DNA of 40,216 nucleotides from Kayfunavirus CLBP1. Location of the stretch: sequence record OZ035730.1. One strand, given 5' to 3'. Below are positions 25,594 through 39,904 of the stretch, piece by piece (position 1 is the first letter of the stretch; each line of letters begins with the position of its first letter). Under the pieces are notes generated by a model, which was given only the letters and a program-made list of their open reading frames with translations, did no database searches and was not told the origin of the DNA. Made by a program: the position numbers and the translations under genes.

Positions 25594-25616
25594 ACTAAAC
25601 TATCACTATAGGGAGA
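25594..25616 (+). promoter_or_regulatory. Phage RNAP promoter (phi10-like, drives major capsid gene)
   Basis: ACTAAACTATCACTATAGGGAGA; +1 G at 25611. Confidence 0.85.
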
Positions 25617-25718
25617 CCAAGAGACAGACTCAAGGTTTCCCTATTACTTCAGTCCATACGGATTGGGCGTACAGTAAGTAATAAACTTTATCTTTCAATT
25701 GAATAGGAGAATTATCAT

Positions 25719-26768
25719 ATGGCAAACGTTCCGGGTCAGAAAATTGGTACAGACCAAGGTAAAGGCAAATCCAGTTCCGACGCTCTGGCGTTGTTCCTGA
25801 AGGTCTTTGCTGGTGAAGTCCTGACCGCATTCACTCGCCGCTCTGTAACGGCTGACAAGCATATTGTCCGTACCATTCAGAACGGTAAGTCTGCTCAGTT
25901 CCCGGTCATGGGTCGCACCTCTGGTGTGTATCTGGCTCCCGGTGAGCGACTGTCCGATAAGCGCAAAGGTATCAAACATACCGAGAAAGTGATTACCATT
26001 GACGGTCTGCTGACTGCTGATGTGATGATTTTCGACATTGAAGACGCGATGAACCACTATGACGTGGCTGGTGAGTATTCCAACCAGCTAGGTGAAGCTC
26101 TGGCTATCGCTGCTGATGGTGCGGTTTTAGCTGAAATGGCTATCCTGTGCAACCTTCCGGCTGCATCCAACGAGAACATCGCTGGTCTTGGCAAAGCGTC
26201 TGTGCTGGAAGTTGGTACTAAAGCCGACCTGAACACTCCGGCTAAGCTGGGTGAAGCAATCATCGGTCAACTGACCATTGCTCGTGCGAAGCTGACATCC
26301 AACTACGTTCCTGCTGGCGACCGTTACTTCTACACCACGCCGGACAACTACTCTGCAATCCTCGCGGCTCTGATGCCGAACGCTGCTAACTATGCTGCGC
26401 TGATTGATCCAGAGACTGGTAACATCCGTAACGTAATGGGCTTCGTGGTTGTTGAAGTTCCACACTTGACTCAGGGTGGTGCTGGTGAAACTCGTGGTGA
26501 TGACGGCATCACTATCGCTTCCGGTCAGAAGCACGCCTTCCCGGCTACTGCTACTGGTGATGTTAAAGTTGCGCTGGACAACGTTGTGGGCCTGTTCTCT
26601 CACCGTTCTGCCGTAGGCACTGTTAAGCTGCGTGATTTGGCGCTGGAACGTGACCGTGACGTCGATGCTCAGGGCGACCTGATTGTTGGTAAGTACGCTA
26701 TGGGTCACGGTGGTCTGCGTCCAGAAGCAGCAGGCGCACTGGTTTTCACAGCAGCGTCAGCGGGTTAA
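25719..26768 (+). CDS. Major capsid protein (T7 gp10A-like)
   Basis: 349 aa; long collinear match to remembered T7 gp10A (SAQFPVMGRTSGVYLAPGE, HTEKVITIDGLLTADV, AILAALMPNAANYAALIDPE, SAVGTVKLRDLALER, KYAMGHGGLRPEAAG). Confidence 0.97.
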   Translation: MANVPGQKIGTDQGKGKSSSDALALFLKVFAGEVLTAFTRRSVTADKHIVRTIQNGKSAQFPVMGRTSGVYLAPGERLSDKRKGIKHTEKVITIDGLLTADVMIFDIEDAMNHYDVAGEYSNQLGEALAIAADGAVLAEMAILCNLPAASNENIAGLGKASVLEVGTKADLNTPAKLGEAIIGQLTIARAKLTSNYVPAGDRYFYTTPDNYSAILAALMPNAANYAALIDPETGNIRNVMGFVVVEVPHLTQGGAGETRGDDGITIASGQKHAFPATATGDVKVALDNVVGLFSHRSAVGTVKLRDLALERDRDVDAQGDLIVGKYAMGHGGLRPEAAGALVFTAASAG

Positions 26769-27031
26769 CGACCTTTAAGGCCCTCTCTACCGAGGGTCCT
26801 ACCTTAGAGACGTATAGTTCTACGGTGGGAACCAGCTTGAAGGTTGACTTCCCTGAGCTTTCAGATGTGACCGACTGGTCACTGCTTGATGTTGCTACGC
26901 CTGATGGTGTTAGTTACTCCCGTAGAACCAACAGTCTCTACTTCAGGGCCACCTCTGGCGTGGAAGGTCTAGTGATTGTTGAGTATGACGGTTCGCCTGT
27001 GCGTTCCTTCAACGTATCTTTCACAAACTAA
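25719..27031 (+). CDS. Minor capsid protein (gp10B-like) predicted from -1 frameshift at 26741-26747
   Basis: After slippage the -1 frame continues about 95 codons (FHSSVSGLTTFKALSTEGPTLETYSSTVGTSLKVDFPELSDV...SFNVSFTN) to TAA at 27029-27031; the C-terminal part is track ORF 26825..27031. Confidence 0.55.
26741..26747 (+). other. -1 programmed ribosomal frameshift slippery site G GUU UUC
   Basis: GGTTTTC three codons upstream region of the 10A stop, within ...ALVF, the same heptamer and context as I recall for T7 10A/10B; the -1 frame is open from here to 27031. Confidence 0.6.
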
Positions 27032-27037
27032 TTGAAA

Positions 27038-27075
27038 CCCCTTGGGTGCCTTCGGGTGCTTGAGGGGTTTTTTTT
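27038..27075 (+). terminator. Tphi-like terminator after the capsid gene
   Basis: CCCCUUGGGUGCC (27038-27050), UUCG loop, GGGUGCUUGAGGGG (27055-27067), then eight U; resembles T7 Tphi in sequence and position. Confidence 0.8.
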
Positions 27076-27090
27076 GCTTAAGGAGGGCCT

Positions 27091-27657
27091 ATGGCTCAAT
27101 ACATTCCACTAAATGCTAACGATGACTTAGATGCCATCAACGATATGTTAGCTGCTATCGGTGAACCAGCAGTCCTACAGCTTGACGAAGGTAACGCTGA
27201 CGTCTCGAACGCTCAACGTATCCTGCATCGTGTCAATCGTCAGGTCCAAGCTAAAGGCTGGAACTTTAACATCAACGAAGCTGCTGTCCTGACGCCTGAT
27301 GTCCAAGACAACAGGATTCGATTCCTGCCGTCTTACCTTCGGGTCATGACTGCTGGTGCTACCAGTTACTACAGCAACATGGGGGGCTATCTCTATGACC
27401 TGTCCACTCAGTCCACGACATTCACTGGACCAATTACAGTCGAACTGGTGGAGATGAAACCGTTCGCTGAGATGCCTGTAGTATTCCGTGACTACATCGT
27501 TACCAAGGCCAGCCGTGAGTTCAACGCTAAGTTCTTCGGTAGCCCAGAGTCTGAACTGTACCTTCGTGAGCAGGAAGCAGAACTCTATCAGCAGGTCATG
27601 GAATACGAGATGGACACTGGTCGCTACAACATGATGTCCGACATCGGGAGGGACTAA
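27091..27657 (+). CDS. Tail tubular protein A (T7 gp11-like)
   Basis: 188 aa; LAAIGEP, RQVQAKGWNFNI, IVTKASREFNAKFFG, EYEMDTGRYNM match remembered T7 gp11. Confidence 0.92.
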   Translation: MAQYIPLNANDDLDAINDMLAAIGEPAVLQLDEGNADVSNAQRILHRVNRQVQAKGWNFNINEAAVLTPDVQDNRIRFLPSYLRVMTAGATSYYSNMGGYLYDLSTQSTTFTGPITVELVEMKPFAEMPVVFRDYIVTKASREFNAKFFGSPESELYLREQEAELYQQVMEYEMDTGRYNMMSDIGRD

Positions 27658-37563: not shown

Positions 37564-37581
37564 ACTATCACTATAGGAAAC
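37559..37581 (+). promoter_or_regulatory. Phage RNAP promoter (phi17-like)
   Basis: ACTAAACTATCACTATAGGAAAC; overlaps gp16 3' end; +1 G at 37576. Confidence 0.8.
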
Positions 37582-37627
37582 GGGAGGCGCTACCATAGGT
37601 CTCCATTTAAATCACAAAGGAGGCATA

Positions 37628-39904
37628 ATGTCCACGATTACACAATTCCCTTCAGGAAACACTCAGTACAGGATTGAGTTCGACTACCTAGCCAGAACGT
37701 TTGTTGTTGTTACGCTGGTGAATAGCTCTAACCCTACCCTTAACCGTGTACTGGAAGTTGGTCGAGATTACCGATTCCTTAATCCAACGATGATTGAGAT
37801 GTTGGTTGACCAATCAGGTTTCGACATCGTTCGTATTCACCGTCAGACTGGAACTGACTTAGTGGTAGACTTCAGGAATGGCTCAGTGTTGACAGCTAGC
37901 GACCTGACCAATGCAGAGCTTCAGGCTATCCATATTGCAGAAGAAGGTCGAGACCAAACGGTTGACTTAGCGAAGGAATATGCCGATGCTGCTGGTGACT
38001 CTGCTGGCAACGCTAAGGATAGCGAGGACGAAGCACGACGAATCGCTGAGAGTATCAAGGCAGCTGGTCGAATTGGCTATATTACCCGTCGCTCCTTCGA
38101 GAAAGGCTTCAACGTTACAACATGGAACGAGGTCCTGTTATGGGAAGAGGATGGTGAGTATTACCGCTGGGATGGTACGCTTCCAAAGAACGTTCCTGCT
38201 GGTTCAACTCCTAACACCGCTGGGGGCATTGGTTTAGGTGCGTGGGTTGGCGTTGGTGATGCATCATTGCGCAGCAATTTATCAGAAAATGATGGCGCCT
38301 TGATAGTAGGTGGAGCTATTCTTGAATGCCAAACGGTAGCACAGGCGCAAGAGATATCTGGTTTAACGGAAGGTCGAAAGGTAAGAACATACTATTATAA
38401 TGTCCCAGTTGTAACAGATTGGGTGTTCACCCCCACCGCGCCGTCCGGTGGGGTTTTCTACATTCCCGCTGTCGGTGGTTACTTGATATTAATGACGCCT
38501 AACTTCGCTTCCGCTGGCATTATTGAAGGTGAATATGTTCCGCTAAACGCCGCACATAACCGTAATGTAATTCAAAAACTGGTAAGAGACACAAGATTCA
38601 GTAAATTTGAATATGGAGCAACAGGTACTTTTTATGTTCTCGGCTCTATTCATCCATTACGAGATAATATAGAAATACACCACGAAGCTGGGGTTACAGT
38701 TATGGGGCGTTACGATGACCCCACGGTAGGTCCAGAAATTATGGGGTTAAACTCCGGCGGTATGTGGTCCTTTGCACACTTTCTCAACCCTGATGCAACG
38801 GTTTGGGATGACAATAACTACACAATTACAGCTGTTATGAAAAATGTTACCTACGTTCTTAACGGAAAGATAGGTACAGAATATAACTCCATTCATTCTA
38901 AACCGCACAACAACAACCCTATTGGTTTCTTTACTTGTGAAAACTGTAGCGTTGTCGGCTCTGGCGGGGTTATTGGGTCTGACCACAGAGGCATTAACGT
39001 AGATGGTGCAGGGGATAATTGCCGTATAGATATCGGGTACGCTACAGGAACCAGCAACAACCCGATTCAAATGAAAATAAACGCTGAACGCTACGCTTTT
39101 GTTAAAGTTGGTGCGGTCTATGGGGTTAAGTTTGATGGCGGTCAAACAAAGGCTGTGGTGTGGTGCGGCGGTGGGCGTGTTGATGTAGAAGTCGGTAACT
39201 ACAGGTGGGATGGGGTGAATAAACCAATCCTCGCTTACGGCAACGGTTGCCAGGAAATAACTTTAAAGGCTGGCATAATATCCGGCGTTTCGCAATTAAT
39301 ACGTCAGTACAATACCCCTGTAGCTAGAGTTCTGTCAGCATGGGTTAATAATACAGACTCTCTCATAAACAAAGCAGAAGATTCTGACAAGGAAGGTGTG
39401 ACCAAGATTTCTGAGATTCGAGGTGTGAACGCCGTCGACACGGTACTAACTAGCGCATTCTATGATGAAACGAAATTAGCGAATCAAGATGTTGTTACTA
39501 TAACCGGAAACGATTTCAGAAACGCTGGACCATCATTCCTTTACTTTAAAGGTAAAACAGCTGGTGGTGCTATTAGGTTGTGGAACGTTAATAACAACCT
39601 CGACCCTGTAGGTCTTGCGGACCTTTCAGACTGGAATATTTTGCTGGGGCAAAGTGTCGTTACTACAGTTTCAGCAACTTCTTTCACGTACACTATGTCC
39701 CGTAGATATGAAAATATCACAATTGCCGTAACGGAATCCGCCACCCTACGGTATGTTACGGTTAGCTTACGAGCGCACCTGTCGTCGTCAACTACGGCGT
39801 CATACATAGTCGGCGGCACGTCTATGACTGTCTCGAGGTCCGGCGATATTTTTACTTTTACGGTTAACTCCGGAACTATAAATTTTTACGTATTACATAA
39901 CTAA
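37628..39904 (+). CDS. Tail fibre / tailspike: gp17-like N-terminal anchor plus distinct C-terminal domain
   Basis: First ~150 aa resemble T7 gp17 N-terminus ([42 protein letters not shown]); from about 38270 the DNA becomes AT-rich and the protein is Gly/Asn/Val/Thr-rich and unlike T7 gp17. Confidence 0.85.

Follow-up and report, generated by a model that had tools for sequence, protein, structure and literature searches.

A predicted -1 frameshift in capsid gene 10 of Kayfunavirus CLB_P1 leading to a minor capsid protein with an Ig-like tail

Gene 10 of phage CLB_P1 very probably encodes two capsid proteins, namely the major capsid protein 10A and a longer form, 10B, which would arise by a -1 frameshift close to the 3' end of the gene and carry a linker followed by an immunoglobulin (Ig)-like tail, as judged from comparative sequence analysis and structure modelling. 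CLB_P1 is a T7-like phage that was isolated on Escherichia coli 55989 (O104:H4) and has served in experiments in the mouse gut (PMC3594211); it is classified in Autographiviridae, Studiervirinae, Kayfunavirus. The window analyzed here was the whole stretch of 40,216 nucleotides (nt) of sequence record OZ035730.1 (Kayfunavirus CLBP1). Window positions correspond to positions of the CLB_P1 record KC109329 plus 4270, and the region 25600-27100 is 100% identical in both records. An earlier note made from the letters of this DNA had predicted a capsid variant produced by -1 frameshifting. This prediction was supported by the conservation of site and frame, by purifying selection, by the lack of a conserved start codon for the extension, and by the annotations of the related phages Peacock and CR8. 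The following features make up the proposed 10A/10B system (aa, amino acids; ORF, open reading frame):

25719-26768, plus strand: gene 10A, major capsid protein, zero frame, 349 aa, 36.4 kDa (from the ORF list; annotated as major capsid protein in KC109329)
26693-26765, plus strand: overlap zone of 73 nt within which a -1 shift can lead from 10A into the extension frame, between the -1 frame stop codon at 26690-26692 and the 10A stop codon starting at 26766
26741-26747, plus strand: putative slippery heptamer G_GTT_TTC at the Val341-Phe342 codons of 10A, in register and equivalent to the T7 site
26747-27031, plus strand: -1 frame extension of 94 sense codons plus TAA (by translation; stop codon at 27029-27031)
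26747-26806, plus strand: predicted linker, extension residues 1-20, of low confidence or disordered (AlphaFold2 confidence, weaker constraint and length variation by whole codons)
26807-27028, plus strand: predicted Ig-like beta-sandwich domain, extension residues 21-94 (AlphaFold2)

According to the proposed mechanism, most ribosomes would read the zero frame up to the stop codon at 26766-26768 and release 10A. A minority would slip back by one base while decoding G_GUU_UUC, with tRNA-Phe re-pairing from UUC to UUU, and would continue at CAC (26747) for 94 codons. The predicted 10B thus comprises 343 + 94 = 437 aa, with a computed mass of 46.0 kDa as compared to 36.4 kDa for 10A, and its predicted tryptic junction peptide is YAMGHGGLRPEAAGALVFHSSVSGLTTFK. 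From the sequence and by analogy with T7, we infer that slippage occurs in CLB_P1 itself. Frameshifting in T7 amounts to about 10% (PMC1635266), and both T7 and K1F possess a frameshift-derived 10B (PMC6277420, PMC1635266, PMC5009743). Because the C-terminus of gp10 points outward in T7-family capsids, the Ig-like domain would be displayed outside the head, in a sub-stoichiometric copy number set by the frameshift efficiency. Fusions of GFP to the K1F protein (PMC6277420) and of EYFP to the T7 protein (PMC1635266) suggest, by analogy, that the extension is surface-exposed. By analogy with other phage Ig-like domains, it may act as a weak adhesin or as a decoration.

The heptamer GGTTTTC was found where it had been predicted, at 26741-26747 in an ALVF context, and it lies in the register G_GTT_TTC. 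With the phase set by the start codon at 25719, the zero-frame codons at this site are CTG (26739), GTT (26742) and TTC (26745), and 10A ends in the context ...AAGAL-V-F-TAASAG before its stop codon. The likeness to the T7 10A/10B site held as well, since the homologous codons of T7 (NC_001604) also contain this heptamer (...AAGAV-V-F-KVE, followed by the stop codon). The first codon after a -1 slip is CAC at 26747, from which the -1 frame runs for 95 codons counting the stop codon, in agreement with the roughly 95 open codons to 27031 given in the earlier note. The extension had also been said to be roughly twice as long as that of T7, which overstated the difference: the ratio is 1.7 (94 vs. 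56 codons), and a factor of two is reached only relative to K1F (48 codons).

The heptamer by itself is no more than expected by chance, and the comparative evidence carries the case. In the window, GGTTTTC was observed twice as compared to 4.0 expected occurrences. The second copy, at 38452-38458, is also in G_GTT_TTC register, within the long ORF 37577-39904; there the -1 frame is open for 14 codons only, and this copy is probably a chance occurrence. Within the 73-nt overlap zone of gene 10, GGTTTTC was the sole in-register YYY heptamer; this zone is about 40 nt long in four of the related loci (L008, L018, L023 and L024). When -1 runs were counted from random coding positions of the genome, the mean run was 12 codons, and runs of at least 94 codons had an empirical frequency of 0.016.

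For the comparison, 33 loci were gathered from annotated phage records and IMG/VR, spanning Kayfunavirus, Przondovirus, Caroctavirus CR8, T7 (Teseptimavirus), K1F, EcoDS1 and CR44b. The motif NGTTTTC was present at the homologous codons in 32/32 related loci with an extension in the -1 frame (31 GGTTTTC and one AGTTTTC), and in 32/32 loci the -1 frame was open from the heptamer to a stop codon just before the terminator. Extension lengths were 91-103 codons for the long type (totals of 91, 93, 94, 96 and 103) and 48-56 codons for the T7/K1F type. Among lineages, the linker differed in length by whole codons only and contained no stop codons. The Val codon at the slip site was GTT in 29/29 unique sequences, whereas synonymous variation was seen at other Val codons among the 40 codons before it; this count was made on loci found through the heptamer itself and is, therefore, supporting evidence only.

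The -1 frame is under purifying selection that is specific to this frame. When 25 unique long-type extensions were aligned by codon, the ratio of nonsynonymous to synonymous substitution rates (dN/dS) was 0.37 in the -1 frame, as compared to 1.06 and 1.45 in the other two frames over the same columns. By part of the extension, dN/dS was 0.27 over residues 27-94, i.e., the domain, and 0.62 over residues 9-26, a stretch that takes in part of the linker. A tblastn search with the extension peptide returned 454 phage records (285 Klebsiella, 54 Escherichia, 35 Salmonella and others), and 338 of these 454 records covered at least 80% of the peptide. Many of the Przondovirus matches, with about 40% identity, spanned residues 1-94, and these alignments began directly after the shift site.

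Two loci from IMG/VR stood apart. The divergent relative L029:1399-1720 (IMGVR_UViG_2974609768_000001) has an A_GTT_TTC site, a longer linker and an extension of 103 codons; its A_GTT_TTC site indicates that G_GU is apparently not required for P-site re-pairing. The natural deletion variant L024:1495-1840 (IMGVR_UViG_2974604219_000001) corresponds to window positions of about 26905-27075. About 53 codons of its -1 extension are preserved; a deletion then takes out the last 41 codons of the Ig-like domain as well as most of the terminator, and past this deletion the -1 frame runs into a hydrophobic tail. The same locus carries a hydrophobic mini-ORF of 29 aa (MFYLLTALGLFVSFWAIILLTGPCSPYDR) with its own Shine-Dalgarno sequence just before gene 11. 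Gene 10 sequences of the Kayfunavirus type, with 71-97% identity, were also seen in OR786095 (Staphylococcus phage MBBL139) and in MT350292 and MT350293 (Enterococcus phages EFA-1 and EFA-2), and MBBL139 also carries the long extension. The Gram-positive host labels of these three records look doubtful (contamination or mislabelling).

The structure of the extension, for which the earlier note had suggested a prediction, was modelled with AlphaFold2 on a family alignment of 25 sequences. Residues 1-17 had a predicted local distance difference test score (pLDDT) below 50, and residues 21-94 were modelled as a seven-strand beta-sandwich with a pLDDT of 87-91. The extension is thus predicted to consist of a flexible linker of about 20 residues and an Ig-like beta-sandwich of 74 residues. 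This fold on a flexible linker and the tolerated GFP and EYFP fusions of K1F and T7 lend support to the earlier idea of a surface-exposed decoration domain. With Foldseek, the best match in PDB was the C-terminal Ig-like domain of the lambda tail tube protein gpV (2l04, E=2e-3, TM score 0.56-0.58), followed by filamin repeats. The sole strong match in BFVD was an orphan 'minor capsid protein' of 76 aa from Pectobacterium phage PP81; the remaining matches were assorted Ig-like proteins. A full-length 10B model was dropped, since the MAFFT alignment (A4) wrongly put short homologues of the extension into the capsid portion (16-23% identity).

By sequence, the CLB_P1 extension had no Pfam match at E<=1. 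Among 25 family members, a weak Big_3 match was seen in five (best E=0.0025), and by Pfam the extension lies outside the recognised Ig-like sequence families (Big_2, I-set, FN3). It belongs to PHROG 7473 ('unknown function'), and a PDB sequence search with the family profile returned no solved structure with this domain. A hidden Markov model (HMM) of the extension matched the BACON-repeat protein P0036 with 21-25 bits per repeat over most of the domain. For the similarity to BACON repeats (PF13004/PF19190), hhalign gave a probability of 51% with E=1.6e-4, and direct Pfam scans gave no BACON match. A remote link to BACON is, on these profile matches, possible. Most long-protein matches of the family HMM were rejected as homology, as they were summed weak matches to a beta-hairpin segment of 25 residues in repetitive proteins; P0036 was the only one to align over most of the domain.

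Two RNA elements 3' of the heptamer are candidates for stimulating the shift:

26753-26859, plus strand: predicted stable mRNA structure, candidate frameshift stimulator (minimum free energy of -47 kcal/mol; starts 6 nt 3' of the heptamer)
27034-27075, plus strand: Tphi-type intrinsic terminator hairpin and T-run with a CCCC motif (terminator scan; 36/36 identity to phiTE of EcoDS1)

The stable RNA at 26753-26859, the terminator, or both might act as stimulators. The 123 nt directly 3' of the heptamer folded with -47 kcal/mol, corresponding to z=-3.2 to -3.3 relative to dinucleotide shuffles, and the outer stem of this fold begins 6 nt after the heptamer. The z-score of the stretch 26753-26859 was reached by 0/118 background windows of the genome (mean of -0.19, minimum of -2.59). 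In other long-type lineages, the z-scores of the 3' structure were -3.65, -2.46, -4.02, -1.90 and -0.76, the last of these in EV136_1; that of K1F was -1.5. RNAalifold, applied to 12 close relatives, gave a consensus equal to the single-sequence fold, with a covariation term of +0.23 and double changes in 2/36 pairs. More distant lineages were not alignable at the nucleotide level and fold differently. An Rfam scan of 26600-27120 gave sub-threshold chance matches only and no known frameshift element. A local RNA stimulator at 26753-26859 is, at this point, a hypothesis, not a finding.

The terminator is a GC-rich hairpin of 17 bp followed by a T-run. It was found just after the extension, as the earlier note had stated, its start at 27034 lying three bases past the end of the extension stop codon, and it is conserved after this stop codon in every locus but the deletion variant L024. 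The T7 site has the non-canonical G_GU as its X_XX part, and frameshifting there requires a distal element, namely CCCC within the terminator, at a distance of more than 200 nt 3' of the site (PMC5009743). The CCCC-containing terminator is kept in CLB_P1, about 290 nt from the shift site and with its CCCC at 27037-27040, and is conserved among the loci; a role as stimulator is known only for T7. In relatives of the HC12/U8 type, about 160 nt of extra spacer lie between the terminator and gene 11, and this spacer is absent from CLB_P1.

In the CLB_P1 GenBank record, part of the extension is assigned to a gene of its own:

26825-27031, plus strand: ORF annotated as 'hypothetical gp10.1', 68 aa, GTG start (GenBank; interpreted here as the 3' portion of 10B and not as a separate gene)

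If this annotation were correct, the downstream ORF would be an independent small gene that is translated from its own GTG start codon into a free protein of 68 aa. A short ORF is likewise called at this place in many automated annotations. We consider a separate gene improbable. The GTG at 26825 is not preceded by a Shine-Dalgarno sequence, whereas genes 10A and 11 have AGGAG and AAGGAGG, respectively. The start is not conserved either: annotators and gene callers choose different start codons, giving products of 49-87 aa, and comparison of the related loci revealed no conserved ATG, GTG or TTG with a Shine-Dalgarno sequence for the extension ORF. In EcpYZU01 and Oda, no candidate start codon precedes codons 31-33, which lie inside the domain. 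In every lineage, the frame upstream of the GTG is open and in phase back to the heptamer. Moreover, predicted strand 1 of the sandwich (residues 22-26) lies upstream of the GenBank start and would be cut off in a 68-aa protein.

Database searches gave a matching picture. In an exhaustive HMM search of 1.84 billion representative proteins, strong matches to the domain were confined to orphan ORFs of 49-84 aa, whose N-termini were ragged, and none lay within a longer in-frame protein. When the fused 437-aa sequence was used as the query against 5.8 billion proteins, the top matches were all 10A proteins of about 340-350 aa with at most 80% query coverage. Automated gene calling yields practically no fused products. 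Orphan short ORFs without fused proteins are expected if the exon is reached only by frameshifting. The labels given to the exon 26825-27031 and its homologues are inconsistent ('hypothetical protein', 'gp10.1', 'minor capsid protein' for a stand-alone ORF of 64-87 aa, and 'unknown function'). In some records, e.g., that of vB_EcoP-U8, the 10A-length coding sequence (CDS) itself is named 'minor capsid protein 10B', and a chain of 347 aa in PDB 9vvq is named 'Minor capsid protein'.

The frame might also be changed at the level of RNA rather than during translation. In this case, the phage RNA polymerase would slip on the T-run, some mRNAs would be one base shorter, and 10B would be made from them by normal translation. 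The site does contain a run of four T, and the CR8 record places the shift feature on 'tttt'. Four consecutive T are, however, few for productive transcriptional slippage. In the literature, the mechanism at the identical T7 site is treated as ribosomal (PMC5009743). Transcriptional slippage is rated as very unlikely; the protein product would be identical to that of ribosomal frameshifting. Least credible of all is that the open -1 frame is a relic or by-product, e.g., of constraints on the mRNA 3' region and the terminator, without meaningful expression: the variant L024 without half of the domain and the terminator, the dispensability of 10B in T7 and the chance-level heptamer count fit such a view, but it is opposed by purifying selection specific to the -1 frame, by a protein of about 40% identity kept across genera in 454 phage records, and by a confidently predicted folded domain.

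Several points weigh against the proposal that gene 10 gives rise to 10A and a frameshifted 10B with an Ig-like tail. For CLB_P1, 10B is a prediction from sequence. The 10B record of CR8 bears the note 'matches in mass spectrometry analysis'; the peptides behind this note may be common to 10A and 10B, and no details are provided in the genome announcement. The heptamer occurs at chance level in the window and is not a canonical X_XXY_YYZ, and the second in-register copy at 38452 means that the motif alone is not diagnostic. Some lineages show a weak 3' structure or none (EV136_1, z=-0.76; T7, z=+0.10), and covariation support for the structure at 26753-26859 is absent among the 12 close relatives analyzed with RNAalifold. 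Finally, the deletion in L024 indicates that the extension is probably dispensable.

The product of gene 10A matched the Pfam family Gp10A-like (PF21703) with E=1.5e-105 and the T7 gp10A structure 2xvr with E=3e-146. The region 25600-27100 shares 94-97% identity with many K1F-like coliphages and with Salmonella and Enterobacter phages. Upstream of the gene lies its promoter:

25594-25616, plus strand: phage RNA-polymerase promoter upstream of gene 10, the phi10 equivalent (23/23 identity to the EcoDS1 promoter annotated upstream of gene 10A)

When CLB_P1 was aligned with K1F, the two phages shared 84-98% nucleotide identity through 10A. About 10 nt past the heptamer this identity is lost, and it returns precisely at the last codon and the stop codon (AAC TAA TTGAAACCCC...), followed by a near-identical terminator. 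These sharp breakpoints (window 26748-27028 vs. 1166-1305 of L004, i.e., K1F) argue that the tail is a swapped cassette, exchanged between the conserved slip site and the terminator. At least three tail types were distinguished in the T7 subfamily: the short T7/K1F type, the T3 type with Big_2, and the CLB_P1 type (454 records). The K1F-type tail peptide was found in 35 records, and the T3-type peptide in a separate set of 404 records. CR44b has the short K1F-type tail.

The capsid frameshift tail of the T7 family is, on these comparisons, a swappable module, which in most Kayfunavirus and many Klebsiella Przondovirus genomes appears to be Ig-like and not the short T7 tail. The frameshift product is already annotated in close relatives (Peacock and CR8); the sequence family of the tail itself is not yet described, and its general kind is known. 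In the open-access literature on Kayfunavirus and Przondovirus capsid frameshifting, we found no paper describing the extension family or its fold. A wider interpretation is offered tentatively, as one that we regard as possible and rather less than evenly probable: the tail might represent an undescribed Ig-like, possibly BACON-related, family for capsid display that occurs only behind the gene 10 frameshift site. As a cassette, it would be exchanged among Kayfunavirus, Przondovirus, Caroctavirus and related phages, alternating with the T7/K1F tail and the T3-like Big_2 tail. It may bring its own local RNA stimulator, and it may serve on the head as a low-copy adhesin for glycans of capsule, lipopolysaccharide or gut mucus.

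In practical terms, the annotation is corrected for CLB_P1, which has been studied as an agent for decolonisation of the gut from E. coli O104:H4. The same correction applies to hundreds of related therapeutic-candidate phages whose records label the exon as a 'hypothetical protein' in its own right or as an orphan 'minor capsid protein'. The domain would occupy a natural capsid display position and is a plausible weak adhesin; as such, it could be relevant to the retention of phages on mucus or capsule and to phage-display engineering. Nothing here alters the understanding of frameshifting as such; the value of the analysis lies in the annotation, the cassette picture and the idea of a local RNA stimulator.

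Among known systems, T7 provides the model. The -1 programmed ribosomal frameshift between T7 10A and 10B was described by Condron, Atkins & Gesteland 1991 and is reviewed in PMC5009743. T7 and CLB_P1 share a homologous capsid protein, G_GUU_UUC at equivalent Val-Phe codons located a few codons from the end of 10A, and a -1 ORF that ends just before a Tphi-type terminator with the same CCCC motif. They differ in the tail, which comprises 56 aa in T7 and 94 aa in CLB_P1 with unrelated sequences, and the T7 10B tail is not Ig-like (Atkins et al., PMC5009743). The distance from the shift site to the terminator is about 200 nt in T7 as compared to about 290 nt in CLB_P1. In addition, T7 has no stable structure directly 3' of the site (z of +0.1), whereas z is about -3.2 in CLB_P1.

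K1F, the type species of Kayfunavirus, has a heptamer identical and a terminator near-identical to those of CLB_P1. Its extension is short and T7-like, with 48 codons by our count and 44 according to the published description. A K1F g10b::gfp fusion yielded fluorescent virions (PMC6277420), which indicates that the shift works in Kayfunavirus and that the C-terminus is displayed. Similarly, T7 virions tolerate EYFP fused to the C-terminus of 10B (PMC1635266).

T3 resembles CLB_P1 in that two capsid species, one of them with a C-terminal Ig-like domain, derive from one gene by -1 frameshifting. The Ig-like (Big_2) extension of T3 10B was reported by Fraser et al. 2006 (cited in PMC5009743); T3 gains this capsid extension by a -1 frameshift, and such domains move by non-homologous recombination (Atkins et al., PMC5009743). 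By its predicted fold, the CLB_P1 extension belongs to the same class, namely Ig-like domains that frameshifting is known to attach to phage structural proteins. The T3 shift takes place at C_CCA_AAG, a few codons further 3', and not at G_GUU_UUC as proposed for CLB_P1. Moreover, the T3 domain is a classic Big_2 whose relatives are found across many phages, in their tail and fibre proteins, in contrast to the CLB_P1 domain, which is without a Pfam match. CLB_P1 is thus not of the T3 type, having neither the C_CCA_AAG shift site nor the Big_2 extension.

The closest annotated counterparts are Peacock and CR8. Peacock (MK903279) is 96.7% identical and has a joined 'minor capsid protein' CDS whose length fits 437 aa; its note cites CR8. 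Citrobacter phage CR8 (HG818824) has the same heptamer and an extension of 91 aa with about 50% identity, annotated as 10B by a -1 frameshift at 'tttt'. Unlike these joined 10B annotations, the CLB_P1 record splits the region into 10A and 'hypothetical gp10.1'. CLB_P1 is a mis-annotated member of the well-known T7-family 10A/10B frameshift system, and the prediction of its 10B is sound but unsurprising.

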